DNA of 42,835 nt from Candidatus Sungiibacteriota bacterium (GCA_016201505.1 JACQCQ010000008.1:1-42835); one strand, 5' to 3'; counted from the stretch's first letter, positions 11,163-31,606 are shown. Numbers and translations: made by a program. The notes: generated by a model not told the origin, from the sequence alone.

Positions 11163-11201
11163 TGGGATTGGAATTTCCTAAAGTATACAGGACTTATGGA
11201 T

Positions 11202-11302
11202 CCCGTTAGAAGCCGCGATCGCGGAAACGGGGTAATGGAAGTATACTAAACTATAATTCAGCCAGCAGACAGAGATTTTGATCGCGATCTGCTTCTAACG
11301 GG
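11202..11302. repeat. CCCGTTAGA..TCTAACGGG inverted-repeat element (101 bp)
   Basis: CCCGTTAGAAGC / GCTTCTAACGGG ends, flanked by ATGGA on both sides. Confidence 0.85.
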
Positions 11303-11419
11303 ATGGAGAAGAAATCGAGAAAGAAAGCGGCGAGTATCGTCTGGATGATAATATCCGTCATCGCCATAGCTTCAATGGTGGCTTTTACATTTCTCCCCTT
11401 GCTCACTCTTCGACAGTAA
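11303..11419 (+). CDS. Small single-pass membrane protein (38 aa)
   Basis: MEKKSRKKAASIVWMIISVIAIASMVAFTFLPLLTLRQ: basic N-terminus plus TM helix; below the ORF-track cutoff. Confidence 0.65.
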   Translation: MEKKSRKKAASIVWMIISVIAIASMVAFTFLPLLTLRQ

Positions 11420-11448
11420 ACCGGGACAGCATAAATCAGAAATCGATG

Positions 11449-11486
11449 TATACCTTATCCCACGCTATAGCGTGGGATAAGGTATA
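11449..11486. repeat. Perfect 38-bp palindrome
   Basis: TATACCTTATCCCACGCTA|TAGCGTGGGATAAGGTATA, between convergent genes. Confidence 0.95.
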
Positions 11487-11549
11487 AGCAAATGAGGGGT
11501 AAATGGAAAGTAAAAAGTAATATGCGGACCGATAAGGAAATTGGGACCT

Positions 11550-13412
11550 TCAAGATCTCTTCAGCATTTTTAAAAACACGTCGGGCGGAATTTGAACACT
11601 CCCCATGCCAAGACCCGCCAGTTTTTTCTTGCCCTTTTTCTGTTTTTTCCAGAGCTTCATTTTTCTGGTTCTATCGCCGCCGTATAAATAGCCCGTTACG
11701 TCTTTTGACATAGCCGACAACGTCTCGCGCGCAATGACGCGGCCGGCAACCGTCGCTTGTATCGGTACGGCAAAAACCTGCGAAGGCAGAAGCGACTTTA
11801 ATTTTGCCACAATGCGTTTTCCTTCCTCATAGGCTTCGTCTTTCGTGATGACGACAGAAAATGCCCGCTCACGGCGTTCGGCAACTAAGATATCAAGCCG
11901 CACCAGATCCCCCGTTTCGTATCCCCCCAACTCGTAACCCATCGAGGCATAGCCGGAAGTCGCACTCTTTAGCCGGTCGTACAAATCAACAATGACTTCT
12001 TTTAGCGGCATCTCGTATTGGATGAGAATTCGCGCAGCGGAAAGGTAATTGGTTTCGACAAATCGGGCGCGTGTTGTCTCAAACAATTTTAAAATTCTGC
12101 CCTGATAGTCAGCGGGCGCAATAACCTCAAGCCGCACCCAAGGCTCGGCAATGGAAAGAATCTCACCTGCTTCGGGGATATCAGCGGCAGAGAAGACGGT
12201 CATCTCGCCGCCCTTTTTTAGCCTCACTTTATATGAAACGGAGGGCGTCGACACCAAAGTTTCAAGCCCGAACTCGCGCTTGACGCGTTCTGAAATAATT
12301 TCTAAATGCAGCATGCCTAAAAATCCAACCCGAAATCCGCGGCCCCAGGCTTCTGAGGCTTCAATTTCATAGGTGAGCGCGGCGTCATTTAGTTTTAATT
12401 TATTGAGTGCGTCTTGGAGTTTAAGAAAATCATCGGCCTCTGTCGGATACATCGAAGCAAACACGACGGGTTTTGGTTCTGCGTATCCGGGCAGCGGAGC
12501 GGCCAAAATATTTCCTTTTTCGACGATCGTGTCGCCAACGCGGATGCCGGTTTCTTTTAAGCCTGTCGCGATATAGCCGATTTCGCCCCCAGCCAATGAA
12601 TCTGCTGCTTGCATCTGGGGTTTAAAATAGCCGACTTCCAAAACTTCGGCGGCGATTTTTGTTTTGAGCATGATGATTGAGCTGGCTTTTTTGATACTTC
12701 CTGACATTACACGGACGTAGGCGATAACGCCTTTATACTGATCGAACTGCGAATCAAAAATTAAAGCCTTGAATCCTCCATTTGATTTTTTCGGCGGGGG
12801 AATACGGAGAATAATTTGTGCAAACAATTCATCAATGCCTTCGCCCGTTTTACCCGATACGCAAAGGACTGAACCTTCGGGGACCTCGAGGAGAGAGGCA
12901 ATTTCCGAAACTGCGCCTTCGATATCTGCGCCCAGCATGTCAATTTTATTTACGACCGGGATAATCGCGAGCCCCTCTTTTTTAGCCACATGCAAGTTAG
13001 CAATGGTTTGCGCTTGGATGCCCTGGGTCGCGTCCACCAGCAAGACGGCGCCTTCAACCGCAGCCAGCGCACGAGAAACCTCGTAGCCAAAATCAACATG
13101 CCCGGGAGTATCAATCAGATTCAGAATATATTCTGAATCTGAAAATTCTAAATTCAAAGCACTAGATTCTAAATTTTTTAGGATTTCGGATTTAGAGTTT
13201 CGGATTTCCGTATGATTTGGTCTCCAAATCATACGGACGGGCTGCATCTTAATCGTAATCCCCCGCTCACGCTCTAAATCCATTTGGTCCAAAACCTGCT
13301 CACGCATTTTGCGATCTTCAATCGTATGCGTTCGCTCAAGCAACCGATCCGCCAGAGTGCTTTTCCCATGGTCTATATGTGCGATAATTACAAAGTTTCT
13401 TATCTGGCTCAT
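11550..13412 (-). CDS. lepA: Elongation factor 4 (LepA) with an in-frame repeat-derived insertion
   Basis: IRNFVIIAHIDHGKSTLADR, ERERGITIK, DTPGHVDF, GFLGMLH, YGGD.TRK.KL. Confidence 0.96.
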   Translation of the reverse strand: MSQIRNFVIIAHIDHGKSTLADRLLERTHTIEDRKMREQVLDQMDLERERGITIKMQPVRMIWRPNHTEIRNSKSEILKNLESSALNLEFSDSEYILNLIDTPGHVDFGYEVSRALAAVEGAVLLVDATQGIQAQTIANLHVAKKEGLAIIPVVNKIDMLGADIEGAVSEIASLLEVPEGSVLCVSGKTGEGIDELFAQIILRIPPPKKSNGGFKALIFDSQFDQYKGVIAYVRVMSGSIKKASSIIMLKTKIAAEVLEVGYFKPQMQAADSLAGGEIGYIATGLKETGIRVGDTIVEKGNILAAPLPGYAEPKPVVFASMYPTEADDFLKLQDALNKLKLNDAALTYEIEASEAWGRGFRVGFLGMLHLEIISERVKREFGLETLVSTPSVSYKVRLKKGGEMTVFSAADIPEAGEILSIAEPWVRLEVIAPADYQGRILKLFETTRARFVETNYLSAARILIQYEMPLKEVIVDLYDRLKSATSGYASMGYELGGYETGDLVRLDILVAERRERAFSVVITKDEAYEEGKRIVAKLKSLLPSQVFAVPIQATVAGRVIARETLSAMSKDVTGYLYGGDRTRKMKLWKKQKKGKKKLAGLGMGSVQIPPDVFLKMLKRS

Positions 13413-13537
13413 GAGTTTCCAGGATTAACCCCGTTAGAGATCCGATTTGTGTGCGACAAATCGGCGTCAAGCTGTACTGGCTTATCTCTAACGGGGTCAA
13501 TATGGGCAATGATTACGAAATTTCTGATTTTAAGCAT
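13409..13537 (-). pseudogene. Duplicated lepA 5' fragment carrying a CCCGTTAGA element
   Basis: MLKIRNFVIIAHID-PVRDK...RISNG-VNPGNS*; the stop overlaps the lepA ATG. Confidence 0.8.
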
Positions 13538-13568
13538 GTCGAATATTAGCAGATAGCGATGCTACCCG

Positions 13569-15269
13569 CTAGCGAAAAGCCGCTCTATCCTCATCAATTT
13601 CTTGTGGCAGAATCGCGGGCTTAATGAGACGGCGGCGGAAGGGTTCGATGAAAGCATTCACCTGCTCACTGCCCAACATATACATAATCCCCGTGTAAAA
13701 AGCGGCCGCAACCATGAAGGTTGCACCGCCCTGCAACAGTACATGCAAAAATGTATCGAGTGGAATGTAGAGTGAAAGAAGATATAAAACTCCGTAGCCG
13801 ATGAATGTTGCGGCAATGGAGGCAAAGATGATTTTAAGTCCGGAGGCCAGCGTTTTTAATGGAATCCCGCCGCCGCCAAAATATTTCTTTGACTCGCGCG
13901 AGAGCGCCACCCAAAGAAAAATGAGATCGAGCAAATCACCTAAGGCGAATGCGAGTGCAAGTCCCAAAACCCCGACATCGTGCAAATCACCGACTTTTAG
14001 AAGATCGGCAATCAATTTGCCGGAGGCTCGGTGAGTGGTAAAAAGTGTCAGCAGAAAAGGCGCCAGCCCGATGACAAAGACGGTTGTAAAGAGCGAGGTG
14101 AAGAATGGGAGTTTCGTGTTGCCGATGGCATAAAAGGAGCGAATAAAAAGCGTGGCCAGACTCTCGCCGATAATGGCGAAGGCAAGTATGGCCAGTGTCG
14201 CGGCCGTAAGCCGCGTATCAACCCAGCTAAAGTGACCGGCTCCCAGGGCGAGCCGCACGACATGCGCGCGCAAAATTAAAAGAAAGCAGGCCAGCGGCAC
14301 CACCCAAAATAAAATTGATTCAATTAAAGCCGATAAATCCTCAAAGAATCCCTCTTTTGATTTTTTGGCCGCATGCTCGGCTAATCGAGAAAATCCAGCC
14401 ACCGAATACGAGACGCCGAAAATCCCGACTGGAATGAAACGCAAATTATCAGCGAGGCGAAACACTGCCACACTCCCGGCGGCCAACGTCGACGCGAGCG
14501 CCACCAGCATAACCGAAATAATCTGATCGAGCGAGAGCGCGGCGACCCGCGGAATCGAAACTAAAAAAACGTTTTTAATTTCAGGAATTTTTTTAAAGCT
14601 TAAAAACTGCGGCCGGAACGAAAGCGCACCAAGCGCCGGAATCTGCACTGCCATATGGAGGAAGGCTCCCAAAATAACCCCGTAGGCGAGCCCCTGCGGC
14701 CCAAAAACAGGTACAAAGGCGAGAATGCCGATAATAATACCGAGATTATAAAGAATTGAGGTGAGGGCAAATACGATAAATTGGCGATTGGCCTGTATGA
14801 CTGAGGAGAAAATATTGGAAACGCCGAGAAATATGGGCGAGATCATCATGATACGCGTCATGGTGATCATGAGAGCCCGCGAGGCGGGATCAAAACCGGG
14901 CGCAACGAGGCGCACGATGAAGGGGGCAAATATCGCAACGATTAAGGAGACGAGCGCCGCCGCCAGTGAGAAGATGATGAGCAATCCCCCAATGAATTCT
15001 TCGGCCTTTTTTTTATCGCGTTCCCAAATCGATATGAAGGTCGGCAAAATGGCCGCCGAGGCGGCACCAATCAAAAATAGCGTGTAAAGGAAATCCGGAA
15101 TTTGGAATGAGGCGTAGTAGATGTCGAGAGTACGCGAGGCTCCATAATGCGAGGCCAGCAGGCGGTCGCGGAAAAGTCCTAAAATTCTCGATAAAAACCC
15201 AGCGGCCCCGATGAGAAAGGCCGCTGCGTGAATCGATGAGATTTCTTTTTTCCAGAACGGTAAGACCAT
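13569..15269 (-). CDS. murJ: Lipid II flippase MurJ/MviN
   Basis: SRILGLFRDRLLA..YGA, F.IPD, about 14 TM segments. Confidence 0.92.
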   Translation of the reverse strand: MVLPFWKKEISSIHAAAFLIGAAGFLSRILGLFRDRLLASHYGASRTLDIYYASFQIPDFLYTLFLIGAASAAILPTFISIWERDKKKAEEFIGGLLIIFSLAAALVSLIVAIFAPFIVRLVAPGFDPASRALMITMTRIMMISPIFLGVSNIFSSVIQANRQFIVFALTSILYNLGIIIGILAFVPVFGPQGLAYGVILGAFLHMAVQIPALGALSFRPQFLSFKKIPEIKNVFLVSIPRVAALSLDQIISVMLVALASTLAAGSVAVFRLADNLRFIPVGIFGVSYSVAGFSRLAEHAAKKSKEGFFEDLSALIESILFWVVPLACFLLILRAHVVRLALGAGHFSWVDTRLTAATLAILAFAIIGESLATLFIRSFYAIGNTKLPFFTSLFTTVFVIGLAPFLLTLFTTHRASGKLIADLLKVGDLHDVGVLGLALAFALGDLLDLIFLWVALSRESKKYFGGGGIPLKTLASGLKIIFASIAATFIGYGVLYLLSLYIPLDTFLHVLLQGGATFMVAAAFYTGIMYMLGSEQVNAFIEPFRRRLIKPAILPQEIDEDRAAFR

Positions 15270-15289
15270 CGGCTGATGAGAACGTACTG

Positions 15290-17839
15290 CTACTTAGACG
15301 GCTGGCCGGAATCACTCACGGGAGGCTGTTTTCGCTGTGTAGGCGAGGGGGCGGGCGGCGAGATAGTGGCCAGAGCCGGTTTTCCGGCATGGAGATTTGC
15401 CAGAATGGTTTTGATTTCTTGATTATCGGGATTTAAGGCCTCGATTTTTTCGAACTCACCGATGGCTTTGTCTTTTTGACCGTTCTTGTCATAGATCAAT
15501 CCGAGGAAATAACGCGCATTGGAATAATTATCATTGATCGAGACGGCGCGCTCGAATTCCGCCTGGGCTCGCGCGAAGTCATTCGATTGGTAGTACAGCA
15601 CACCGAGTTGAAACGCGACACCGATATCAAAGGGTGCCAAGTTTTTTACCTGTTCAACCTGCTGGATAGCTCGCGGCAAATTTCCTTGCCTGATTAAAAC
15701 CTGGGCGAGCAGGTAATTCGACTGGGCCAGATCCGGTTTTAATTGAATCGAATGCTCGAGTGCAATGCGCGCGCCTTCCAAACCATTTCGTCCATCGGCC
15801 AGGATAGCACCCGCCGTATCCTGCGAGAGGCCGGGTTGGGAAAGCAGCAGCTGGTCTCGATCGACTAAAGCCACATAGGTCGTCGCCTTGCTGTAATCAT
15901 AGGTCGGGTTATAGGGATCGGTTTTTAAGGCATTATCAAATTGCTGAACGGCCAACTTTTCAGACCCCGAGATGAAGGGAACGATTGACTGATAGACATT
16001 CCCCAGGGATACCCAATTGAGCGAGTCGCTCGGGTTAATTTGCGTCGCCCGCTGTGAGGCCGCAATGGCTGATTGCACAGTATTCTGAAAATCAACCTGG
16101 AGATTGGCGCGATTGGCTCCACCTTGGGAGGCTTGCGAGATGATTCCCTGAAGCTTGGTGAGCAACATTTGAGAAAGTCCTCGGTAATAGGCATCATTGT
16201 TGGGATCAAGCGAGGTGGCGCGCGTGGTGCGTGTGATGGCATCATCAACATGGCTCTCTGAAAAAAGATTCGCGCCTGCGGCAAAATAATATGCGGCGAT
16301 GTATTGCTCCACGGTGCTATACAGCAGTGTAATGCCGCCAACCATCAAAAATATGATGGCCAGCGAGGTCGCGAAGGTTACCCAGGGCGCAGTGAAGGCG
16401 ATTGTTCGTTCGGATATTCTCCACCAGGATGGAGAAAATTCCGGTTCGTAGACTTCGGCAATGCGACTCACTAAAATCCCGAGCAAGACGAACACCGTGG
16501 TCCATAGCGTGAACGTGCTGGAATAGAGCGATAAAGCAATAAAGGAAAAAATGACCGCCACACTTCCGGCTATGAAAATTGGATTATCATCAATGGTCCG
16601 TGCAATTTGACGCAACAAAGAGCCAATGACCACAACAGCGAAGATAATCAAGGCGAGAACACCGAGCGCCCCGGTTGTGGCGAGCGAGGTCGTAAGAAAT
16701 GATGAACCGTTGTTAAACCTGACACCCCAAAAGTTTGTCTGATTGATGGACGGATCGCGATACATGCTGTAGTCGACACCAAACGTACCGGGGCCGGAAC
16801 CGAATACAATATTCTTTTTCAGCGCTTCTTTGGCAATAGTTAAGGTCGCTTTCAGCGAGGGTGAAACTTCGGCCGGTATCGCGCTGTTCTGCCAAACCGA
16901 AGCGCCGGAAAGCAGGAAGAAAATCACCAGAGCCAGAACCAGGAATGGCAAAGCCAAAGCCTTGGTGTCTAAAAATGATCGATCAGACTCGGAAAACGAC
17001 TGATGCAGAACTCGGAATCTGAAGGCGAGAATCACCACAATCGAAGCCAACAGTCCGATCCATACCGTCTTAAAGTTTAAAATCACAAGGTTGGCAAAGA
17101 GCGTTGCGGCCATGAGATAGAGGAGTCTTTGTACATTTTTCGAAAGGCCGGCATTTTCAGAGGTCAGCAGGCTCAGCGCAAAAACGAAGAAAATGCCAAG
17201 CATAACAGCCAGCGCATTCGTCGTGCCAATCGTGTTAACATCGGCGCGAGCCAAAGCCGCAATTGGTATGATTTTGGGTGCTATCAGCTGGACGAGAGAG
17301 AAAATCGAAAGCAGAAAACCTCCGGCCAGCAGCCAGCCAGCGTATCTTTGGGATTCTTCTTGATTTAAAATCACACCACCCGAGACAAAAAAGACGGCCG
17401 CCAAAACAAGAAACGAGATGAATCGCTCGCCAACCAAATCGCCGGCAAGCAACCCTTTTAATGCCTGGGGCGAGAAGAGAGTTGAGAGGAAAAGAACCAG
17501 CAGCAGCAAGAGTACCGCGGCATTAACGAGCGAGCGTTTATAGTAAACCCGACCGGAAAGAAGCGACTCTCCAAGCCAGGCGATAAAGGATACGAGAGCC
17601 AAAACCGAAACGACAACCTGCTTGATTAAGGTTGCCGGAACCGTCGAGTTCGAAAACAAAAGCGGGCTCGCAAAAGCGATGGCATACAAAGACCAGCGCG
17701 CAATTTTGCGCCAGACGCTTTCTTCGGAAATAACAACTGCTTCATCGACTTCTCGGACCTCACCGACTTCTCGGACCTCACCCTCGGCGAAACCGGCGCC
17801 GGCGAATCCGCCAAACCAGGCTCGAATATTCATATTCAT
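15290..17839 (-). CDS. Polytopic membrane protein (O-antigen ligase-like) with C-terminal TPR repeats
   Basis: About 13 TM helices, FGSGPGTF motif, TPR repeats (YSNARYFLGLIY). Confidence 0.8.
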   Translation of the reverse strand: MNMNIRAWFGGFAGAGFAEGEVREVGEVREVDEAVVISEESVWRKIARWSLYAIAFASPLLFSNSTVPATLIKQVVVSVLALVSFIAWLGESLLSGRVYYKRSLVNAAVLLLLLVLFLSTLFSPQALKGLLAGDLVGERFISFLVLAAVFFVSGGVILNQEESQRYAGWLLAGGFLLSIFSLVQLIAPKIIPIAALARADVNTIGTTNALAVMLGIFFVFALSLLTSENAGLSKNVQRLLYLMAATLFANLVILNFKTVWIGLLASIVVILAFRFRVLHQSFSESDRSFLDTKALALPFLVLALVIFFLLSGASVWQNSAIPAEVSPSLKATLTIAKEALKKNIVFGSGPGTFGVDYSMYRDPSINQTNFWGVRFNNGSSFLTTSLATTGALGVLALIIFAVVVIGSLLRQIARTIDDNPIFIAGSVAVIFSFIALSLYSSTFTLWTTVFVLLGILVSRIAEVYEPEFSPSWWRISERTIAFTAPWVTFATSLAIIFLMVGGITLLYSTVEQYIAAYYFAAGANLFSESHVDDAITRTTRATSLDPNNDAYYRGLSQMLLTKLQGIISQASQGGANRANLQVDFQNTVQSAIAASQRATQINPSDSLNWVSLGNVYQSIVPFISGSEKLAVQQFDNALKTDPYNPTYDYSKATTYVALVDRDQLLLSQPGLSQDTAGAILADGRNGLEGARIALEHSIQLKPDLAQSNYLLAQVLIRQGNLPRAIQQVEQVKNLAPFDIGVAFQLGVLYYQSNDFARAQAEFERAVSINDNYSNARYFLGLIYDKNGQKDKAIGEFEKIEALNPDNQEIKTILANLHAGKPALATISPPAPSPTQRKQPPVSDSGQPSK

Positions 17840-18021
17840 GGATTTAAAAATTATCGAACAATATGCTCGCGAAGGACTCGCGATCGTCTCCTTATCCCCA
17901 GAGTTTTAAATAGGATAAACAGTACCTACATCTTAGTGGCTAGGAAATGGCGGCGTCAACTGAAATAATACAGAGATCATCCCCTATTGCCAAAAGAGAA
18001 TTTCTAATATATAATCGAGCC

Positions 18022-18603
18022 ATCTTTTACATCGTTATGGCCGCCCCGCACTTTTATTAGCTTTTGAGCTAATAAAAGTGCGGGGAGGAAAGTCCGAACA
18101 CTTGACTCTTACATGAGTTGTCGTGATAGCGGCTAACGGCCGCCCCGAGTCGTGCATGGCATGGAAATTCGAAATTCGAAACCCTAAATTCTAAACAAAT
18201 TCGAAAACTCAAAACTTCGAAATTCAAAACGTTTAGGATTTAGCAATTAGGATTTAGGATTTGCGCGCTGTGCGCGGCCAAAGGTGAAAAGTAATCCGCG
18301 AAGGATTTCTCGTGATTGGTAACAGTCACGAGTGGAAAACCCTATCTAGTGCAAGGACAAACACCGTGCATGGCGCGGAAATTCGAGATTCGAACCCCTA
18401 AATTCTAAACAAATTCGAAAACTCAAAACTTCGAAATTCAAAACGTTTAGGATTTAGAAATTAGGATTTAGTGTTTCCGCGCCGTGCGCGGTGACAAGTA
18501 GTCCGCTCGACCCCGAGAGTAATCGAGGGGCTAGACAGATGGCCATACCGGCAAATGAAAATTTTGCCGAGAACAGAATTCGGCTTATGAATGTAACAAG
18601 ATA
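18022..18603 (+). ncRNA. rnpB: RNase P RNA with two ~126-nt hairpin insertions
   Basis: GAGGAAAGTCCGAAC near 18085 and AACAGAATTCGGCTTAT near 18572 (P4); P2 TATGGCC/GGCCATA; long P3 hairpin; ends approximate. Confidence 0.9.
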
Positions 18604-18609
18604 TCAAGG

Positions 18610-18640
18610 TCTCCGCCCTAAAAGCGGGGATTTTGTTTTA
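18610..18640 (+). terminator. Probable intrinsic terminator of rnpB
   Basis: TCTCCGC-loop-GCGGGGA followed by TTTTGTTTT. Confidence 0.6.
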
Positions 18641-18641
18641 T

Positions 18642-18815
18642 GAAGCCCCCACGGCCGTACGGCCGTGGTATCTCGCAATTCGCCTTCAGGCGGACTCTTG
18701 CGAGATCAGCGGAATCCGCCAAAGCATCTACCCTTCAACTTAGCTCGGGGTTATCCGCCGCTTTTCGCATTCATCCACCGGTTTAGGCTAGTGGTCTTTT
18801 GCGCCGGCAGATAAA
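18642..18815. repeat. REP-like multi-hairpin element
   Basis: CCACGGCCGTACGGCCGTGG hairpin at the left and a degenerate CCAC..GTGG hairpin at the right. Confidence 0.5.
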
Positions 18816-18844
18816 AAATTGTGCGGGCCCACGAGGGCCCGCAC
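18815..18844 (-). terminator. Terminator of the 18849-19181 gene
   Basis: GTGCGGGCCC-loop-GGGCCCGCAC followed by AATTTTTT on the minus strand. Confidence 0.7.
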
Positions 18845-18848
18845 GGAA

Positions 18849-19181
18849 TCACGCCAGATGACTGACCAGATTGAACGGCGCTTCGCACTTTCTCGAACTG
18901 TCTTGCGCCAGCCTGGTGGCTAACTCGCGAGCCAGCTGGAGTAGCAAGTGCCTCAGCTCTTCTACGTCATTTGCCGCGGATCGAATTTCGGAGAGAGCCT
19001 CCGACACTTCAGGCAGAGGGAGCTGCATTTCCGCTTGCAACGATGAGCTGTCGCACGGCACGCCGATTCGCTCGAGCTCCCTAACTGATTCCACCAGAAC
19101 GCCGAAGGCGGTTCCGTTGCACCTCCGCGCAACATCGACTATGAGACCGTCCCAGAGATCTTTCCTCGGGATTTCGGCCAT
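18849..19181 (-). CDS. Hypothetical protein
   Basis: ORF with GGGGGGTGA SD-like sequence and a downstream terminator. Confidence 0.6.
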   Translation of the reverse strand: MAEIPRKDLWDGLIVDVARRCNGTAFGVLVESVRELERIGVPCDSSSLQAEMQLPLPEVSEALSEIRSAANDVEELRHLLLQLARELATRLAQDSSRKCEAPFNLVSHLA

Positions 19182-21823: not shown

Positions 21824-21839
21824 GGGATGATGGGGGTTA

Positions 21840-23224: not shown

Positions 23225-23713
23225 TCTATGTAAAACGTAATCGACTTTTCATCAAAAAACGAGTAGGCATCCTGGTCGAAATCTATTGACAAAATGTAAT
23301 TCCCGCCATGATCACTCGGTACTAAACCGAATCTGAAGTCCCGATTGCTTGAGATTAGGTCATAAATACCAATGCCATTTATGGTACGGCAGTTTACCCT
23401 TCCGCTGCCAAAACACAAACCTTCATCCTTTTCCCCACACACATCAAGTGAAATCGTTGCATGTAAATTTTTAGCCAGAAGAAAACGTGCGCCACAAAAT
23501 TGGATACGTCCTCCACTTTCCAACCCAAAGTCAGATCAAATGAGAAGTTGAGAAGGGTGAGAGATCTTTGGACGGAGGTGCTTTGAAATGTCGTGGGCTT
23601 TGTGATCTGTTGGCGTCCTATGAACTACACCAATCTACCCACAATGAACATAAGAGCGACTAAGATAAGAACGGGAAGTTTAAAACCAAGCGGTGGCTTA
23701 TTCGTTTAACATG
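23221..23713 (-). pseudogene. Probable decayed exported-protein gene
   Basis: Signal-like segment (FKLPVLILVALMFIVG) with an in-frame TAG and frameshifts, upstream of the 23221-23523 ORF. Confidence 0.35.
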
Positions 23714-23772
23714 TTTTTCTCTAGTGTAGCAAAGCGAGCTCAACGTGAACATAGGCGACTGCGTGAGTGTAA

Positions 23773-24570
23773 TTATCTCAAATACCCGACTTGCTTTAAC
23801 CAATAGTCATTCTCCCACTCCCAAAGAGTTTTGGCGGCGAGAAAGGCCTTGGCGTCGCGGTAATAATAGGGAAACTCTTTTAGTTCGATATCCCCTTCCG
23901 GCCCATTAAACTCATGCTCCGCTTCCGGACAGGGCTTCACTGCATTTCGTCTGCCATTTCTGATTTTGGACCTTCCGCCTTTTTCGCGAAGCTTGGCGCC
24001 ACATTTTTTGCAGACCGAATGCTGATTGATACGCAAGATCCAGCGCGTTTCTACGGCCCGAGTAAGCCCCAGGGCTTTTTTCATCTGATACTCTTGCAAG
24101 GCCTGAATGTAGGCCGCAGTCTGCAAATTATATTCGGGATAAAATCCGGGCGAGGTTTTTATATCCAGCACGCCGAACTTCCCATCAATGATGCAAAGCG
24201 CATCGACAGTCCCCGCATAGCGGTGTGACCTGGACCAAATTTGTTTTTCAATATACTCGGGAATAAATTCCATCTTCCGTTCTTCGTTAAATTGCATAAG
24301 TGTTTCCAGGGCGGCGGCAAATTCGGGCGGGATCTCGACAGCTGCACCGGTTAAAAGTTTTTGGGCAGTTTCATGAATCAGCGAGCCTTCTTCGGCTGAT
24401 TTATTCTTTACCTCTTCGGCTGATTCATACGAGCCCATCTCGCGAAAAAATGAATCGAGCGCAGGCTTTGATTTAATATCCAAAATCTTGGTAACCCGCG
24501 GATACCAAACCCCGTCAATGTGATATCCCATCTCCTCTTTAAATTTATTGCCGTCAGAAAACCATCCCAT
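23773..24570 (-). CDS. PD-(D/E)XK nuclease superfamily protein
   Basis: YPRVT.IL, GS.IH, YAGTVD, LDIKTS, QTAAY; C-terminal CxxC..C..H. Confidence 0.8.
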   Translation of the reverse strand: MGWFSDGNKFKEEMGYHIDGVWYPRVTKILDIKSKPALDSFFREMGSYESAEEVKNKSAEEGSLIHETAQKLLTGAAVEIPPEFAAALETLMQFNEERKMEFIPEYIEKQIWSRSHRYAGTVDALCIIDGKFGVLDIKTSPGFYPEYNLQTAAYIQALQEYQMKKALGLTRAVETRWILRINQHSVCKKCGAKLREKGGRSKIRNGRRNAVKPCPEAEHEFNGPEGDIELKEFPYYYRDAKAFLAAKTLWEWENDYWLKQVGYLR

Positions 24571-24767
24571 TAGAAAATTAATCAGTTTAACTTTGGTAAT
24601 GCTTACACGTATATTCAGTATAGCAGTTTACTAACATATTCCTTATCATTTTAATTTTCTAACGGGATAATCCCGTTAGAAAATTAATCAGTTTAACTTT
24701 GGTAATGCTTACACGTATATTCAGTATAGCAGTTTACTAACATATTCCTTATCATTTTAATTTTCTA
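24566..24767. repeat. Tandem pair of CCC(A/G)TTAGA elements (101 bp plus a truncated copy)
   Basis: 24566-24666 and 24672-24767 are near-identical; TIR CCCRTTAGAAAATTAA / TTAATTTTCTAACGGG. Confidence 0.9.
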
Positions 24768-24918
24768 GAGTTCAAACGGACCTCGCTTATTCGTGTAGCT
24801 ACCTTTACTACCCCTATTGTGCTGGTTGAGGCGTTTCCGCAAGTCGGCAGTGAACCCGGTATAGAATCTGTTTGATTTTAAGCTTCTCAGTACATAGACA
24901 TAGAACATAGATAGGTCT

Positions 24919-26076
24919 CTAATGGGACCGCCTTTCAAGCGCCCTGATCCCCGCTAGCGTCCCGTTGGCCGCGAGCTCGAGCAACGCCCCGCCCGCGGTT
25001 GAAATATAAATCCCCGGGTTTCTAATATGCTCACGCGCCAAGACACCGGAGAGATCCCCGCCGCCTAAAATGATTTCCGCCCTGGATGACCGAAGGGCCC
25101 TGGCGGCGCGCGCGGTCCCCTCATTGGTTTTTTGAAGCTCCATATACCCCAAGGGGCCATTCCAAAGAATGGTTTTCGATTTTTTTATTTCGCTCACCAA
25201 AAATTCGGTTGCCGCGCCGCCGACCTCAACAATGTATTCATTTTTTTGGACCTGGGTAATTTTTTTATTTTTGGGAGCCGCACGTGAGGCCAGGCTCGGC
25301 AGTGTCTTTACATCTCGGGGCAAATATATCCCTTTGACGCGCAACAATTTTTTTGCGATTGAAAGAGAATCTTTATCATAGATCGACTTACCGATTTCAT
25401 AGCCTTTGGCTGCTAAAAAAGTATTAAGCATCGCCCCGCCGATAAATATAAAATTTGACCTTCGGGCTAGGGCTTCGATGTAGGCGATTTTTGTGCTGAC
25501 TTTGGCGCCACCTATGATTACCAGAAATGGTTTCTTGGGATTCTTGAAGCTTTTTCCCAAGTGCGTAACTTCTTTTATAAAATCAATGCCCGCATAGGCC
25601 GGCAGCAACTGCGGAAGCTGAACGATTGAGGCCGCATTTCGATGCGACACGGAGAAGGCCTCGTTTACATACACATCGCCCCAACGGGCAATGGATCGCG
25701 CAAATTTTGCCTCATTTTTCTGTTCGCCCGGCCAAAAACGCAGATTTTCGGAAAATAAAATGGGAGTTGAATGGCTATCGGGATTTTCTTTTACCGGATC
25801 GGAAACGAAGCCGATCTTTTTGCCGAGTAATTTTTCCAGCCGACTTACAATCGGTCGGATTGACATTCGAGTATCACGGCCCTTCGGCTCGCCTAAATGA
25901 GCAATGATAAAAAGCCGGCCGCGATGGGCTAAAACCCATTTGATCGTGGGCAGTGCCGCCTGGATGCGAAAATCGTCGAGAATCTTTCCTCGAACCAGCG
26001 GCACATTCATATCCACCCGAAGAATCACGCGTTTTCCCTCAAAATTTCTGACAGTCTCAATAGTTCGAATTTTCAT
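24919..26076 (-). CDS. pgk: Phosphoglycerate kinase
   Basis: RVDMNVP, HLGEP, ENLRF, GGAKVSTK, WNGPLG, STAGGA.LE. Confidence 0.95.
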   Translation of the reverse strand: MKIRTIETVRNFEGKRVILRVDMNVPLVRGKILDDFRIQAALPTIKWVLAHRGRLFIIAHLGEPKGRDTRMSIRPIVSRLEKLLGKKIGFVSDPVKENPDSHSTPILFSENLRFWPGEQKNEAKFARSIARWGDVYVNEAFSVSHRNAASIVQLPQLLPAYAGIDFIKEVTHLGKSFKNPKKPFLVIIGGAKVSTKIAYIEALARRSNFIFIGGAMLNTFLAAKGYEIGKSIYDKDSLSIAKKLLRVKGIYLPRDVKTLPSLASRAAPKNKKITQVQKNEYIVEVGGAATEFLVSEIKKSKTILWNGPLGYMELQKTNEGTARAARALRSSRAEIILGGGDLSGVLAREHIRNPGIYISTAGGALLELAANGTLAGIRALERRSH

Positions 26077-26120
26077 TGTCTCGTGATGGTCTAGTCTTGA
26101 TATACTAAGTATAACAACTT

Positions 26121-27398
26121 ATGCCGGAAACCAAGAAAAATATTGTCATTGCGGGCGGCGGATTCGGCGGGATTCTTGCCGCCGTTTATTTAGATAAAGG
26201 CTTAAAAAAGAATCCGGCTATTGCAAAAAACTACCAGCTGATCTTAATAAATAACCATCACTTGCATCTCTACACGCCGGCTCTCTATGAAATCGCCTCG
26301 ATTCCTCAAGGAAAACATAATCTTGAATATGTAAAATCATCCATCACGATACCCCTCATCGAAATTTTCGAGCATCGAAATGTCGAGTGGAGGGAGGAGA
26401 CAATTATCAGCATTGACCGAACGAAAAAAGAATTAGCGTTTCAAAGCGGAAAAGCACTCCCCTACGAATATCTAATATTGGCTCTCGGTTCTGAAACTTC
26501 ATACTTCAATATCCCCGGCGCCAAAGAGCATGGTCTGCCGCTTAAAACATTCGCCGATGCGGTACATCTTCGGGATGCAATCGAAAATGGCTTGATGTCG
26601 GGCACTTCGCATCTGGATATCGTGGTGGCGGGGGCGGGAGCTTCTGGCGTTGAGGTGGCAGCCGAATTTGAAAATTTTGTCTCTTCCATTCAGAAAATTG
26701 GCCAGGCCTGCCAGGTCACTGTCTCACTGGTTGAAGGCTCACCTGAAATTCTCCCGGGATTTGATGCTTGGGTGGTCCAAAAAGCCAAAAAACGGCTTGA
26801 ATCGCTAGGCGTAAAGATTATAACGAACGCCCTGATTACCCAAGTCGATAAAACCATGATCAGGTTTAAAAATGGCTCGACGCGTCCCTATACGATTTTA
26901 GTTTGGGCGGGAGGGGTGAAGGCGGCTTCGGTACTCGCATCCATGGGGATTCAATTATCGCCAAAAGGTGGTGCACCTATCAATCAATTTCTTGAGGTAG
27001 GGAGAAGTATTTTTGCCGTTGGAGACAGTGCTGCGTTTATCCATCCTAAAACCGGAAAACCATTGCCCTGGAATGTACCAATTGCCGAAGCCCAAGCCAA
27101 AACCGCGGCGGCCAATATCATCCGAGAAATCAGCGGGAAGCCGAAGCTTCCCTTTCGCCCAAAGATTAAATACCCATTTATCCTGGCCGTTGGCGAAACC
27201 TATGCCATTGCCGACCTAAATCTCTTCCATCTCGCCGGCTTCTCCGCCTGGATTTTAAAACAGGCTATTGAATTAAAATATCTCCTAACCATTCTCCCAT
27301 TCTTTCAGGCCATCCCGACTTGGCTCAAGTTCATGGCGGTTGCGCGGTCAAACGATGTCAGGATGTCTACTAAGACTCAATCTCCTCAAGCGAACTAA
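26121..27398 (+). CDS. ndh: Type II NADH:quinone oxidoreductase-like flavoprotein
   Basis: GGGFGG, LALGS, GAGASGVEVAAE, WAGG, FAVGD. Confidence 0.8.
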   Translation: MPETKKNIVIAGGGFGGILAAVYLDKGLKKNPAIAKNYQLILINNHHLHLYTPALYEIASIPQGKHNLEYVKSSITIPLIEIFEHRNVEWREETIISIDRTKKELAFQSGKALPYEYLILALGSETSYFNIPGAKEHGLPLKTFADAVHLRDAIENGLMSGTSHLDIVVAGAGASGVEVAAEFENFVSSIQKIGQACQVTVSLVEGSPEILPGFDAWVVQKAKKRLESLGVKIITNALITQVDKTMIRFKNGSTRPYTILVWAGGVKAASVLASMGIQLSPKGGAPINQFLEVGRSIFAVGDSAAFIHPKTGKPLPWNVPIAEAQAKTAAANIIREISGKPKLPFRPKIKYPFILAVGETYAIADLNLFHLAGFSAWILKQAIELKYLLTILPFFQAIPTWLKFMAVARSNDVRMSTKTQSPQAN

Positions 27399-28161
27399 TA
27401 ATCTTTGCAAAATCGTCTTTTAAGGATGCACCGCCAACTAGAACACCCTGAACTTCGCCGGAGGTTTCGCGAATGAACGAGGCCACGTTTGTCGAAGTGA
27501 TCGATCCGCCGTATAAAACTCTGGCGTGCGAGACACTGCCCTCGCCATGCATTTCGGCCAAAACTTTTCGTATATAAATTGCGGCTTTATGCATACTCTC
27601 CGGCGTGTCCGGCTTTCCCGTCCCGATCGCCCAAACCGGCTCATACGCCACGACGAGAGACTCAATAAACATTCCGGAAATTCCTTGGGTCGCCTTTTTT
27701 AATTGATCGCCAACAATTTCTGGGATATCATCGCCCATTCGTTCTTTTTCACCGATGCACAGTATCGGATGCAGCCCAGTCTCAAATGCGCGCTGTAACT
27801 TTTTATTTACCATCTCGTCCGTCTCGCCGAGAAGTCGCCTACGCTCTGAATGACCAATGATGACATACGAAACGCCGAGTTCCTTTTCCATCGGCCCCGA
27901 AACTTCGCCGGTATAGGCGCCGTCTCGCTCCCAGAAAAGATCCTGCGCGCCAAGATGAACCGCGGCCTCACTGCGCATCTCAAGATCATGAATTCCCCAC
28001 CTGCGCTCGATGGCCGATAAAAACGGGAAGGGCGGACAAACCACGACCTCAACATTTCTGGCAGATTTGGCGGCGTTCAAAGTCGTGGAAAATAAATCCA
28101 GAGCTTCCCCCTCCGTCCCCGGATTCATTTTCCAGTTAGCAACCGCGAGGTATTTTTTCAT
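27370..28161 (-). CDS. tpiA: Triosephosphate isomerase
   Basis: ANWKMN, GHSERR, AYEPVWAIGTG, YGGS, LVGGASL. Confidence 0.97.
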   Translation of the reverse strand: MKKYLAVANWKMNPGTEGEALDLFSTTLNAAKSARNVEVVVCPPFPFLSAIERRWGIHDLEMRSEAAVHLGAQDLFWERDGAYTGEVSGPMEKELGVSYVIIGHSERRRLLGETDEMVNKKLQRAFETGLHPILCIGEKERMGDDIPEIVGDQLKKATQGISGMFIESLVVAYEPVWAIGTGKPDTPESMHKAAIYIRKVLAEMHGEGSVSHARVLYGGSITSTNVASFIRETSGEVQGVLVGGASLKDDFAKIISSLEEIES

Positions 28162-28261
28162 CCCATTAGAGAATTAATTAATAACTTCATTGCACGTTTA
28201 ATGTTTTTATGGCTGCGAATCTCATTTTCGAGATACGGCTTCTGGTTAATTCTCTAATGGG
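28162..28261. repeat. CCCATTAGA element (100 bp) at the galT/tpiA junction
   Basis: CCCATTAGAGAATTAA / TTAATTCTCTAATGGG, a perfect 16-bp TIR. Confidence 0.9.
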
Positions 28262-28266
28262 ACAAA

Positions 28267-29304
28267 CTAGCTGACTTTAACCGAGCGCAAAAATTCGGCG
28301 GCCGATTCGGGTGTAATGGTCGAGATTTCAATGCCGGTGGCAAACTCAAATCCAGCCAGCGTACTTGTTATCGGCAAAATCTCGAGATGCCAATGATAGT
28401 GCGAGTATCCCGAAGCGGATTTCGCCGGTGCGGTATGAATAAAGAAGTTGTGTGACGGATCGTTTAGGCCTTTATCGAGTTTGGCGAGGGACACCCGCAA
28501 GGCCTCGGCAAAGGGCGTTATTTCGTTATCGCTGATATTTTGAAATTCAGAGGCATGGAGTTTGGGAAAAATCCGCACCTCAAATGAGGTATGCGAAGCA
28601 AAGGGCGCAAATGCCACAAATAAATCATTTTCAAAAATAATACGGTGTCTTTCTTGCAATTCAAACTCAATGATTACGCAATGAATGCATTTTTTATTCT
28701 CGCGAAAGTATCGTTCGGAACCGGCCAGCGAGCGCAACAGTTCAGGCGAGACAACAGGAATGGCGATTAACTGTGAATGCGGATGCGTAATGGAAGCTCC
28801 CGAATGCGGGCCATGGTTATGGATAATAGAAACGTATTCAACGCATTCTTCAAACGACAACGTGCTCATCCGTTCGCGATAGCTACGAATTACGAGGGCG
28901 GCTTCGTCATTTGTCATCTGGGCAATCGACTTATGATGATCGCGGGATACGATAACTTCGTGAAAGCCATTGCCGTCGGTAAACTTATGCGGACCCAAAG
29001 GTAAAATAACGGGGCAGATCGGGCTGGGATAAAATGCCGGAAACTTGTTGGGGATCACCTCGATAAACCAATCGGCTGCGGCGGGGCTATCAAAATCAGT
29101 TACGATTTCTCCCTTTTTTGAAATGACTAATTTGGCATCACTTTCTAATTTCTCAAAGGGACAGGTCTCGATATTGTTCGTTGGCTTTTCTTCTTTCGAG
29201 ACAAAATCATTTGGGCGCCGGGCGCGGCCCGTCGCAATCACCACCCATTCGCCGGTCACAACATCCTGGCGCAGTTCAGTTAATTTTTTTCCAGCATCAA
29301 GCAT
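28267..29304 (-). CDS. galT: Galactose-1-phosphate uridylyltransferase family protein
   Basis: RARRP, CPF, NKFPA, GASITHPHSQ, YHWHLEI. Confidence 0.9.
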   Translation of the reverse strand: MLDAGKKLTELRQDVVTGEWVVIATGRARRPNDFVSKEEKPTNNIETCPFEKLESDAKLVISKKGEIVTDFDSPAAADWFIEVIPNKFPAFYPSPICPVILPLGPHKFTDGNGFHEVIVSRDHHKSIAQMTNDEAALVIRSYRERMSTLSFEECVEYVSIIHNHGPHSGASITHPHSQLIAIPVVSPELLRSLAGSERYFRENKKCIHCVIIEFELQERHRIIFENDLFVAFAPFASHTSFEVRIFPKLHASEFQNISDNEITPFAEALRVSLAKLDKGLNDPSHNFFIHTAPAKSASGYSHYHWHLEILPITSTLAGFEFATGIEISTITPESAAEFLRSVKVS

Positions 29305-29587
29305 ACCGGGTAGTATAAATTTGGCTATTTTTTTGATTATAGCAGAATTCTTTCAACATACGCTTTAATAGTCTAGCGCCCTGACTCGTTTTTAAATAGT
29401 GCCCTCTTCGCTTCGCATCTGATTCATTCAAATAGGCTTCGTAATGAATCAAATGCCAGGGCGCGTAAGGCTCGGTAGACTTATTCTTTTTGGAATTATG
29501 TTCCACGATTCTTTTTCTTAAATCTTTTGTGTAACCAACGTAGAGTCCATTCGCTCTATTTTGTAAAAGATAGATATAGTGGAACAT
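29297..29587 (-). CDS. GIY-YIG nuclease family protein
   Basis: YIYLL..LYVGYTKDLRKRIVEHN..ST..PW.LIHYEAY. Confidence 0.9.
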   Translation of the reverse strand: MFHYIYLLQNRANGLYVGYTKDLRKRIVEHNSKKNKSTEPYAPWHLIHYEAYLNESDAKRRGHYLKTSQGARLLKRMLKEFCYNQKNSQIYTTRYA

Positions 29588-29619
29588 AATTCACAGCCAA
29601 ATTTTCACTACCTGGCATA
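29302..29619 (-). mobile_element. Inverted-repeat-flanked GIY-YIG cassette with TATG duplication
   Basis: 25-bp imperfect IRs at 29302-29326 and 29595-29619 (20/25 identical). Confidence 0.75.
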
Positions 29620-30198
29620 GGTTCCTTTTAGATCATTCCATTTAATGATTAAAAGTTCGCGGAAGGTTGAAACATAGGCAGAAAGGCCGACTTTAGAGCC
29701 CGGCGGATTGTGCCAAATAACTGGGACTTCTTTAATTTTTAAGCCAGATTTTTCACCTACTATTAATAACTCTGAGTCGAAAAACCATGCTTTATCTTCA
29801 ACAAGCGGCAACAGCTCATCGATGACCGCGCCCGCGAGTTCAATTGAACCAATCACCAGATCATAGCCTTGCTGTAAATAGGGTTCCATTTTGCCGAAAT
29901 GATCGGGCGCGGTTGAGTTGTCGGCATCAGAAAATAACCGAACCGCACCCCCGGCTTTTAGCATTCCATCAAGAACGGCACCGCCCTTGCCCGCATCATT
30001 TGCCTCAAGAATGGAAAGCTCGCGAATTTCCTTCATCAAGCGCTCAACAATTTCTCGCGTTCGATCGCCCGAATGGCTGTCTACGACAATGATTTCATAT
30101 TCAATAGCGCGTCCGGAAAGATAGGCGTTAACTTCCCGAATCGATTTTTCAATATTTCGTTCCTCATTTTTTGACGGAATAATCCAGGAGAGATACAT
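29608..30198 (-). CDS. GT2 glycosyltransferase (Dol-P-glucosyltransferase-like), apparently internally deleted
   Basis: IIPSKNEE, VVDSHSGD, GKGGAV, FSDADNS, FDSELL; the DTQCGFK segment is missing. Confidence 0.75.
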   Translation of the reverse strand: MYLSWIIPSKNEERNIEKSIREVNAYLSGRAIEYEIIVVDSHSGDRTREIVERLMKEIRELSILEANDAGKGGAVLDGMLKAGGAVRLFSDADNSTAPDHFGKMEPYLQQGYDLVIGSIELAGAVIDELLPLVEDKAWFFDSELLIVGEKSGLKIKEVPVIWHNPPGSKVGLSAYVSTFRELLIIKWNDLKGTYAR

Positions 30199-30202
30199 GG
30201 GA

Positions 30203-30305
30203 GCAGAATTTCTAAGGCCTAATGTCTAATTTTTAAAATTGAGCATGCCGGAAACAAGATCTGCCTAGAGATTAGAAATTAGACATTTATAATTTAGCAT
30301 TTCGA
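30203..30305. repeat. Heptamer-repeat hairpin insert at the yqgF/GT2 junction
   Basis: TCTAAGG-CCTAATG-TCTAATT ... ATTAGAA-ATTAGAC-ATTTATA. Confidence 0.6.
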
Positions 30306-30307
30306 TT

Positions 30308-30697
30308 CTATTGTACTCTATTCCGTTTGTCCAAAAAACTTTGCAGAATGAGCGCTGCCGCCGAGGCATCAGAGTTCTCTTTTGAGTGCATTTCAGCTAT
30401 TTTAGTCGTAAACATCTCGTCCTCAAAGTGCACCTTGGCCGGGCATCGCGAGGCAAGATTCTTGCCGAAGTTTTCAATTTCTTCTCTGACGTCACGCACC
30501 ATGCCCAGGATGGCCTGCGGCTCACCTAAAACGACATTTTCCACCCCCTCCTCACGAACGAGGAGGCAGACCGCGTCAATGATTTCTTCTGCCGAATTAT
30601 TTGCGAGGACTGTATGCGGAAAGGCTATCTTGCCCTCCACATCCGAAAGCGAGATGCCGACCCGCGCCCTGCCGTAATCGATTCCCAAGTATTTCAT
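30308..30697 (-). CDS. yqgF: YqgF/RuvX pre-16S rRNA nuclease
   Basis: YLGIDYG..RVGISLSD, DEMFTT, DASAAALILQSFLD; the start overlaps the map stop. Confidence 0.92.
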   Translation of the reverse strand: MKYLGIDYGRARVGISLSDVEGKIAFPHTVLANNSAEEIIDAVCLLVREEGVENVVLGEPQAILGMVRDVREEIENFGKNLASRCPAKVHFEDEMFTTKIAEMHSKENSDASAAALILQSFLDKRNRVQ

Positions 30698-31506
30698 CCC
30701 GTTATAACTTGATGTCCATCTTTTGTTACCACAACCGTATGCTCGAAGTGAGCCGCCAATTTTCCATCGGCAGTGCGGAAGGTCCATTCATCGGGATCGA
30801 GCCTGACGCGCCAGGTCCCTTCAGTCGCCATCGGCTCGATGGCGATGACCATGCCTTCTTTTAATACGAGGCCCTTCCCCCGCTCGCCGAAATTAGGCAC
30901 AAAGGGATCTTCATGCACTTTATACCCCACGCCGTGCCCGGCGAGATCCCGCACCACGCCGAATCCGTGATTCTCGATGTGCGCCTGGATTGCCGCTCCG
31001 ATATCGCCGATTGTAGCACCCGCTTTTACTTCTTTAATCCCCAAGTCAAGCGACTCGCGCGTCACACGAATTAATTTTTCAGCCGTCTTTGAAATTGCGC
31101 CGACACCGACGGTAATCGCCATATCAGTTGCCATCGGCCGCACGCCACTTAATTCTTTATTCTTTATTCTTAATTCTTTTCCCGGCCACCACATTCCAAT
31201 ATCAAGACTCACCACATCGCCGTCTTGGAAGATTTGCGTTTTTGGGGGAATAGCGTGAACCACTGCGTCATTCACCGATACGCAAATCGAAGCCGGATAG
31301 GGAGTTTTGGCGCCATAGGGATTATACCCTTTAAATGAAGGCTCACCGCCTGCGGCTCGAATCAATCTCTCGGCGAGTCTATCAATCTCACCCGCCGAAA
31401 CGCCGGACGCGACCGCCTGCGACACCTCACGCAAAACTTCAGCGAGCCGCCGCCCGCCTTCACCTAAAGTCTTAATCTCTGCTTTAGATTTAATGCTAAG
31501 GTTCAT
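30694..31506 (-). CDS. map: Methionine aminopeptidase type I
   Basis: CVSVND.VVH, GHGVG..HEDP, AIEPM, AHFEHT. Confidence 0.96.
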   Translation of the reverse strand: MNLSIKSKAEIKTLGEGGRRLAEVLREVSQAVASGVSAGEIDRLAERLIRAAGGEPSFKGYNPYGAKTPYPASICVSVNDAVVHAIPPKTQIFQDGDVVSLDIGMWWPGKELRIKNKELSGVRPMATDMAITVGVGAISKTAEKLIRVTRESLDLGIKEVKAGATIGDIGAAIQAHIENHGFGVVRDLAGHGVGYKVHEDPFVPNFGERGKGLVLKEGMVIAIEPMATEGTWRVRLDPDEWTFRTADGKLAAHFEHTVVVTKDGHQVITG

Positions 31507-31606
31507 CCCGTCAGAAAATTAACTCCTGACTTTTCAGAAATTTATCTACGCTATAATAGTTTTGGTCTCTAATGTATCCCATAGCACGCCTCAATTTTTT
31601 AACCGG
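31507..31606. repeat. Degenerate CCCGTTAGA element (100 bp) at the adk/map junction
   Basis: CCCGTCAGAAAATTAA / TCAATTTTTTAACCGG. Confidence 0.75.

Follow-up and report, generated by a model that had tools for sequence, protein, structure and literature searches.

What is the short palindromic sequence that stands directly against the start codons of several genes on a contig of Candidatus Sungiibacteriota bacterium (GCA_016201505.1, JACQCQ010000008.1:1-42835), and how would it have come to lie there? The whole stretch of 42,835 nucleotides, here called the window, is contig C12 of a genome of 815,893 bp (G000; 20 contigs, completeness score 100%). A reading made from the sequence alone had drawn attention to five copies of a repeat with conserved ends, four of them about 100 bp long and one of 66 bp, and had described them as fixed in length, unrelated in their interiors, and abutting start codons. 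From the copies in the window, in the rest of the genome, and in related genomes and public records, we consider it reasonably probable (about 60%) that they are a family of short, non-coding, palindromic mobile elements, resembling MITEs (miniature inverted-repeat transposable elements), which insert at ATGRA start sites.

Palindromic elements and the genes they adjoin

The half-motif CCCRTTAGA occurs at 10 sites in the 42.8-kb window, compared with a mean of 0.50 in shuffled sequence, and none of 100 shuffles reached 10. The ends of the element are inverted repeats, (A)TCCCGTTAGA...TCTAACGGGA(T), and they are conserved well beyond the window, with 108 exact end motifs in the 815,893 bp of the genome. 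All five copies are present where the sequence-only reading had placed them (Table 1), four with good ends and the one before map in a degenerate form. When folded as RNA, each of the five forms one long hairpin closed by the end repeats, with z-scores from -3.9 to -8.1 for four copies and -1.15 for the decayed map copy.

Table 1. Coordinates of the element copies and related features (window positions unless a contig of G000 is named)
Feature	Location	Strand	Details
Promoter-like site TTGACA-17 nt-TAAAGT	11156..11184	+	consensus match only
Distal copy of duplicated target ATGGA	11196..11200	+	proximal copy 11303-11307
Family-A copy, 101 bp	11202..11302	+	gene-proximal end adjoins ATG 11303; fold z -3.92
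Short copy, 66 bp, AC...GT-flanked class	13430..13495	.	17 nt 5' of lepA start; fold z -8.06
Copy, 101 bp, AAAATTAA-type arms	24566..24666	-	fold z -4.54
Composite	24672..24926	-	truncated second copy of element 24566-24666 plus part of longer element
Family-B copy, 100 bp	28162..28261	-	fold z -6.37
Half-site, one mismatch, CCCGTTATA	30698..30706	-	adjoins likely ruvX/yqgF ATG, overlaps map stop
Degenerate copy, 100 bp, CCCGTCAGA ... TTTAACCGG	31507..31606	-	fold z -1.15
Second-family sites	38203-38300, 40021-40094; C2:16682-16787, C5:199820-199937, C7:28505-28614		
63-bp in-frame copy	C7:56404-56466		inside sole Xer-type tyrosine recombinase ORF
Family-A variants with ~120-nt module	C5:92635-92869, C11:59007-59229, C16:79509-79736		nested in proximal arm
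Family-A variant with ~120-nt module	~260 bp from C18:4120		partner end not found
Other long family-A variants	C16:34202-34566, C18:113140-113300		

At three genes of the window, the ATG directly follows the terminal GGG of a copy, as had been read from the sequence. The copy before tpiA (TIM; 27370-28161, minus strand) is the entire spacer between the stop of a galT-like gene and the tpiA ATG, the copy before map (Peptidase_M24; 30694-31506, minus strand) occupies all of the gap from the adk stop to the map ATG, and the family-A copy precedes a 38-aa membrane-like open reading frame (ORF; 11303-11419). The nuclease start that had been placed inside a repeat at 24570 also stands, and it belongs to a 265-aa ORF (23773-24570) which begins at an ATG created within the variant end CCCATTAGA of the copy at 24566-24666. 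The 66-bp copy adjoins no start codon. In the case of the family-A copy, the promoter-like site stops 11 nt 5' of the distal ATGGA, and a transcript from this putative promoter would have the whole element as its 5' leader.

Two solo half-sites had also been proposed, at the pgk stop and at the overlap of the map stop with the ruvX start, and neither is quite what it seemed. The pgk stop TAG (24919-24921) lies within TCTAATGGG at 24918-24926, which is the right end of the composite; in this composite the second copy is truncated at ~24768, and 96 bp are 99% identical to the copy at 24566-24666. The site at the map stop does exist with one mismatch, and it may be a relic or chance, the latter because one-mismatch sites are common in the genome. 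Among contigs from four DNA runs of one study, covering 11100-31000, none joined across an element as an empty-site allele would. Contig joints within 11220-11286 have sides shorter than 30 letters, their probable source being further copies of the element or different organisms, and a joint from 24682 to 24768 looks like the collapse of a tandem duplicate.

Across the genome, automatic pairing with up to one mismatch per end gave 54 pairs. Five were removed (three long pairs in coding sequence, one 129-bp pair with a mismatch at both ends, and one 25-bp mini-hairpin) and the degenerate map copy was added by hand, leaving 50 curated elements. Their lengths fall at 93–112 bp for 37 copies, 58–66 bp for four, and 123–275 bp for nine, with a mode of 101 bp (12 of 50 copies) and an overall range of 25–275 bp once mini-hairpins are included. 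The length of ~100 bp is therefore a strong mode with tails on either side rather than the fixed value that had been claimed. Nor are the interiors unrelated. BLAST clustering of the 50 copies gave families of 17 (A, with arms CCCGTTAGAAGCCGCGATCGC ... GATCGCGATCTGCTTCTAACGGG), 13 (B, with arms CCCGTTAGAGAATTAA ... TTAATTCTCTAACGGG), three and two, with 15 singletons, and alignments show that interiors are homologous inside each family, the window copies being drawn from different families. The earlier argument that the element is unlike ordinary MITEs thus fails, because it rested on interiors that are in fact homologous within subfamilies.

Longer variants of family A hold conserved nested modules of ~55 nt (as in the 160-bp variants) or ~120 nt, at the same insertion point in the proximal arm, and neither module has an Rfam match. 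An Rfam scan of the window at gathering score found tRNA only, and a search at E up to 1 found nothing on the elements of 18 named loci and 11 loci of the genome. Overall, the element interiors matched no Rfam family and no known insertion sequence (IS), although IS libraries were not searched, and a viral contig collection gave one match to the element. As a separate observation, two 25-nt mini-hairpins, made of the end repeats only with a 4–7-nt loop, flank a 76-nt hairpin at C18:112500-113450, and this trio sits ~1.2 kb upstream of the 16S rRNA gene.

The association with start codons is genuine, and very strong, across the genome. There, 25 of 100 element ends adjoin an ATG opening at least 40 codons, against 0.5 per 100 at random positions; these belong to 25 of the 50 elements, and both ends of one element never do so. 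We also used 126 named loci from a scan of species-representative genomes, among the matches listed and with a search pattern that required AT on both flanks; this scope applies to all counts on named loci below. Here 110 of 120 oriented copies adjoin an ATG opening at least 60 codons, compared with 28.5% of the 4,056 ATGRA sites in the genome (binomial p ~4e-48). Of the 110 N-terminal fragments, 61 have a Pfam match at E up to 1e-5, and many of these alignments start at residue 1–10 and profile position 1–4, in families such as PGK, TIM, SSB, L9, RRF, ADK, DnaN, deformylase, and several aminoacyl-tRNA synthetases. Judged from sequence, these ATGs are true starts. Genes of this genome that have the element at their start are, among others, pheT, tsf, ssb, rpoD, gpmI, tpiA, map, an RNase J-like gene, and rarA.

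Frames opened at the distal ATG were followed in 104 copies. None reads through in frame into the gene; 71 end within the element, 23 terminate at the end repeat's TAA, and nine at an ATGA overlap. The mini-ORFs that the sequence-only reading had seen bridging two of the window copies have the sequences described, but the coupling to the downstream gene that they suggested is not general.

The genome offers some context for how genes with such leaders may be expressed. A Shine-Dalgarno-like motif precedes only 53 of 604 long ORFs, and -10-like hexamers that end 6 nt upstream of the ATG are enriched across the genome (51 occurrences, against ~10–30 at other spacings), which suggests that leaderless or very short-leader messages are frequent. 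The same hexamer precedes the distal ATG in 18, nine and 16 copies at 6, 7 and 9 nt, compared with ~2–8 elsewhere (n = 104), and thus many elements would make up the initial ~100 nt of a transcript, or else a hairpin between cistrons. An ancestral Shine-Dalgarno motif before the distal ATG was found in only nine of 104 copies and was dropped as a candidate. Another candidate, that the element is a promoter cassette, was rejected: the interiors are AT-rich, but -10-like hexamers number 103 sense and 106 antisense (n = 146), and -35/-10 pairs are unbiased by strand at rising stringency (62 vs. 66, 25 vs. 27, and 8 vs. 5). Given this lack of strand bias, promoters in the interiors are not claimed.

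Target-site duplication, orientation and empty sites

With the copies of the genome added to those of the 126 named loci, 169 copies were available, and ATG stands at exactly one end in 147 of them, at both ends in seven, and at neither in 15. Each copy was oriented by its ATG-adjoining end. ATGAAT (78 copies) and ATGGAT (24) are the most frequent gene-distal flanks, the proximal ones read ATGAAN or ATGGAN, and the same 5-mer is found on both sides in 98 of the 147 oriented copies. The duplicated ATGGA that had been pointed out at 11196 is an example of this general target-site duplication. In addition, the variable fourth base co-varies across the two sides (A/A 91, G/G 26, discordant 30; n = 147). 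No arm position tracks the A or G type of duplication at p < 0.001 (the best, p = 0.0015, are distal-arm position 11 and proximal-arm position 31), and the repeat therefore derives from the target and not from the element. The sole position that reaches p < 0.001 is the flank base just 5' of the distal repeat. The idea of a 'guide', in which element positions would co-vary with duplication type, was rejected on the same result.

With respect to the gene, the two arms are not symmetric. The terminal repeats hold an invariant 9–11-mer, and positions 10–12 are complementary between the arms in 126 of 146 copies, with 19 different triplets. Of 146 copies, 86 have a 4-nt bulge (ATCT, TCCT or ACCT) in the proximal arm and 10 have one in the distal arm. 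In 37 of the 86, a second stem of 7 bp is preserved past this bulge; it has 12 different sequences and pairs in the bulged register only.

Comparison with relatives shows that sites occupied in this genome are empty elsewhere. At the tpiA site, genomes G001, G002 and G004 have a 0–6-nt spacer or an ATGA overlap in place of the 100-bp element, and at the map site, G002, G003 and G006 have stop/start overlaps, while G001 holds a copy of another family. The ssb site is empty in 14 of 14 relatives, where this genome has two tandem copies with ATGAAT before each. Likewise, the tsf site is empty in 12 of 12 relatives, several of which show the rpsB stop and tsf start overlapping as ATGA; in this genome the element has ATGA on both sides, and the rpsB and tsf frames therefore both survive. 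As a further observation, the galT-tpiA junction of G003 (C22) holds a different palindromic insert of ~110 bp without CCCGTTAGA ends.

Copies at separate loci are 96–100% identical, and the distribution of the element is patchy and bursty. At least one exact pair is found in 19 of 41 genomes of the same order, with 21 in G000 and 0–9 in the others, and in a phylum-wide sample 24 of 401 genomes are positive, with at most 14 copies; a reversed-pattern control gave no match in any genome of these same-order and phylum searches. The named public records with the element are nearly all Patescibacteria, and some records labelled Planctomycetota or Omnitrophota have a subfamily of their own. Of the 50 copies, two (63 and 66 bp) are found in frame within long ORFs. 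The 63-bp copy, within the Xer-type gene, is absent from the orthologues of G001 and G006, and G004 has another in-frame palindrome in the same place.

These comparisons show the anatomy of the element, its target duplication and rule of orientation, the empty orthologous sites, the bursts in single lineages and the abutment to true starts; from them we propose how the element would move. It would insert by staggered-cut transposition, with an enzyme acting in trans, in one fixed orientation at ATGRA or (A)TGRA, in practice at the first bases of ORFs, and would duplicate 4–5 bp of the target. The upstream target copy would remain with the preceding promoter or with the overlapping TGA stop of the previous gene, and the downstream copy would restore the ATG and second codon right after the ...TCTAACGGG end; because both target copies are retained, both neighbouring genes would survive. 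Since each insertion would rebuild its own target and leave it open to further hits, tandem arrays are expected, and arrays with 6-nt ATGAAT spacers are indeed found at several loci. Afterwards the element would be borne as a 5' leader or inter-cistronic hairpin, which may be tolerated because this lineage rarely uses Shine-Dalgarno sites.

Competing explanations and the search for an enzyme

Several observations weigh against mobility as the full account. The duplication length is ambiguous, at 3–5 bp, according to how the constant T (distal) and A (proximal) are assigned, to the element or to its flank; about a third of copies have no clean duplication, and the AT flanks of the named loci were forced by the search pattern. 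The share of copies at real starts (92%) looks higher than would be expected from sequence specificity alone. It is also unusual for a MITE with no visible transposase that an identical 11-mer end is found across very distant classes of Patescibacteria and in some Planctomycetota and Omnitrophota records. A second family of palindromes with other ends also flanks ATGs. Finally, three of the 47 tRNA genes of the genome (Leu-CAG, Val-CAC and Ser-CGA) are enclosed exactly by a pair, and at tRNA-Pro only the 3' half of the element is present. The orthologous tRNA-Leu(CAG) of G004 and tRNA-Val(CAC) of G002 have these stems too, in G003 the tRNA-Val orthologue retains the outer flanks with the stem swapped for a CCCGCCTAAA type, and other tRNAs bear further CCCCG-headed stems. 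Relatives keep leader-trailer stems at orthologous tRNAs, identical or swapped in sequence, which is not accounted for by simple insertion; together with the second family and the in-frame copies, these stems make a host-level RNA function conceivable.

The CCCGCCTAAA-type motif belongs to the second family. Its ends, CCCGCCYAARTTTT, give 62 matches at up to two mismatches and form 15 pairs of 35–299 bp. With its different ends (CCCGCCTAAATTTT) it too duplicates ATG and flanks tRNAs: three of the 15 pairs are bordered by ATG-containing direct repeats, and tRNA-Glu and tRNA-Pro are among the genes it flanks. A perfect 59-nt hairpin of this family lies within a 16S rRNA match, in a gene that is itself split, with two Rfam matches ~900 bp apart (C18:104000-114000) interrupted by insertions, and with a group I intron and a group II intron fragment nearby. 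The ends of the window also bear on repeats of this kind. Its first bases (1-60), when reverse-complemented, match the last ones of C16, and its last bases (42776-42835) overlap the first bases of C16 at the site of a second-family element; the two contigs therefore adjoin at repeats.

The tRNA genes speak for an RNA module used by the host, in which the CCCG.../...CGGG stem would be a leader-trailer processing signal and a cut at its base would free tRNAs and, before ORFs, yield messages that begin at AUG (leaderless) or are insulated from the cistron upstream. We regard this as unlikely, if still plausible. The scarcity of Shine-Dalgarno sites, the -10-like hexamers 6 nt before ATGs in general and 6–9 nt before the distal ATG, the exact end of the element at the A of ATG, and a co-varying stem with a conserved asymmetric bulge and strong folds would all fit, and such a cassette would spread through its usefulness, which is compatible with mobility too. 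However, the target duplication, empty sites and bursts are accounted for by mobility alone. One would expect greater uniformity of a core processing signal than presence in 24 of 401 genomes, most genes and tRNAs are without it, and none of 130 named-locus copies encloses a tRNA. A more specific form of the idea seems distinctly unlikely to us: a portable RNA-processing and start-site cassette, in which cleavage at the foot of the CCCG/CGGG stem by a host nuclease would release tRNAs from their precursors and, before ORFs, give mRNAs that start exactly at AUG. If this were true, operon-internal genes would be translatable as leaderless messages in a lineage that barely uses Shine-Dalgarno sites, and the aim at start codons would reflect selection for function, or a mechanistic coupling to initiation sites.

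Other readings turn on the enzyme, for which the genome encodes four candidates: a Y1 protein resembling the REP-associated tyrosine transposases (RAYT; REP, repetitive extragenic palindrome), an IS5-like transposase, a weak IS3/IS481-like protein, and one Xer-type recombinase. None of the four genes is bounded by the end motif. No end pair in the genome encloses a transposase and no small contig ends in the motif, which counts against a mobile element as well. Long ORF-bearing copies, which the sequence-only reading had suggested looking for, were sought in the genome and none was found; three candidate pairs (712, 762 and 1,298 bp) were rejected, with mismatched ends lying within coding sequence. 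Across the 41 genomes, Y1_Tnp is not associated with the element (10 with both, nine with the motif only, 19 with Y1_Tnp only, and three with neither), DDE_Tnp_1 is found in only two of the 19 motif-bearing genomes, and G001 and G006, both with a completeness score of 100%, have 8–9 exact-pattern copies and neither Y1_Tnp nor DDE_Tnp_1. On this lack of co-occurrence, RAYT and IS5-type transposases were rejected as partners.

It is nevertheless worth asking whether the element could be moved as single-stranded DNA by a RAYT-like (HUH/Y1) enzyme, as are REPINs (hairpins formed by paired REP sequences), in which case it would insert 3' of ATGRA and the right-hand ATGRA would be its own. A RAYT-like gene is present (REP_Tyr_transpos 74.7 bits, cut-off 80; Pfam Y1_Tnp 28.1 bits, cut-off 23), the whole element is a hairpin, insertion is orientation-specific, and a regenerated target would account for the arrays. 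We find this very improbable, since beyond the missing association with Y1_Tnp, both repeats, left and right, vary together with the target and no position of the element follows the repeats. The RAYT-like gene, moreover, is flanked not by the end motif but by another palindrome. This gene lies downstream of polA (C4:1224-3120), and before it stand the genome's only two copies of an imperfect palindrome of 30 nt.

An alternative in which the element is a folded-DNA recombination site, similar to integron attC sites or exploiting Xer, appears to us very unlikely. A tyrosine recombinase would act on it, and the 5–6-bp repeat would be the crossover region. Such a site would explain the two paired boxes with an asymmetric bulge between them and a variable loop, the tandem junctions that read arm, 6 nt, arm, the inter-cistronic position, and the one Xer-type recombinase of the genome. 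Yet the order of the boxes is opposite to that of attC when read directly (GTTAGA 5', TCTAAC 3'), and gene-cassette arrays are absent. At 142.5 bits the recombinase falls short of the cut-off of 265 for the integron-integrase model (integrase_gron), and it passes the XerA model (234.3, cut-off 220); Xer is near-universal, and its co-occurrence is uninformative. We give hardly any credence to the ends being binding sites of a protein, as in a regulon operator, or a DNA-uptake signal, with no mobility at all. The conserved 11-mer beside many gene starts and the 25-bp mini-palindromes could be read in that way, but half-sites ~100 bp apart are unlike an operator, the downstream genes are functionally diverse, and duplications, empty sites, arrays and in-frame ORF copies would be unexpected. 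A mobile element of the MITE kind thus remains our preferred reading.

Known repeat families and significance

Like MITEs, the element is short and non-coding, has terminal inverted repeats and a target-site duplication, and shows presence or absence between relatives together with recent copies. A parent IS with the same ends was not found in this genome, and in the relatives neither DDE_Tnp_1 nor Y1_Tnp tracks the element. Correia elements of Neisseria and the enterobacterial repetitive intergenic consensus (ERIC, also intergenic repeat unit, IRU) are ~100–150 bp long and non-coding, with inverted-repeat ends and a short duplication of a TA target; many lie near genes and are co-transcribed as a hairpin, and they have no transposase of their own. 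In all of these features except the target our element resembles them, its own co-transcription being predicted, and the likeness is functional rather than drawn from a sequence comparison. It differs in its target, an ATGRA at a start codon which is rebuilt, in its fixed orientation to the gene, in ends conserved phylum-wide, and in the tRNA genes within some pairs.

Palindromic elements of Rickettsia can sit in frame in protein genes, as do the two in-frame copies found here, one of them in the sole Xer ORF. Unlike those elements, most copies of ours lie outside ORFs and exactly at an ATG, and target duplication is evident. With REP and REPIN sequences the element shares the form of a hairpin-forming extragenic repeat in a genome with a RAYT-like gene, and differs in having a target duplication, in a RAYT-like gene without the flanking motif, and in that the gene and the element do not co-occur. 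The attC sites also have conserved paired ends, an asymmetric unpaired spacer, a loop variable in sequence and length, and an inter-cistronic position. Their consensus runs from RYYYAAC at the 5' end to GTTRRRY at the 3' end, whereas here GTTAGA is 5' and TCTAAC 3' on either strand, so that the core boxes are reversed; an integrase at cut-off and cassette arrays are also missing. What is new is the start codon as a target rebuilt by duplication, the fixed orientation to the gene, and ends conserved across Patescibacteria. In the titles and abstracts of the literature searched, neither this element nor any start-codon-targeting element was found described.

The genomes of Patescibacteria are tiny and densely packed, and are considered poor in mobile elements. 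A hairpin element at ~50 copies in 816 kb which exploits the start codon, including 4-nt stop/start overlaps, and spares both neighbours would be a neat way of transposing within a genome that has hardly any DNA to spare. The conserved ends provide a simple marker for tracing the mobilising enzyme, and the tRNA-enclosing copies raise the question of whether the host has recruited the stem for RNA processing. In addition, the element puts a strong hairpin right beside the initiation codons of essential genes (rpoD, tsf, ssb, pheT, tpiA and map), and it therefore bears on translation initiation in these organisms.

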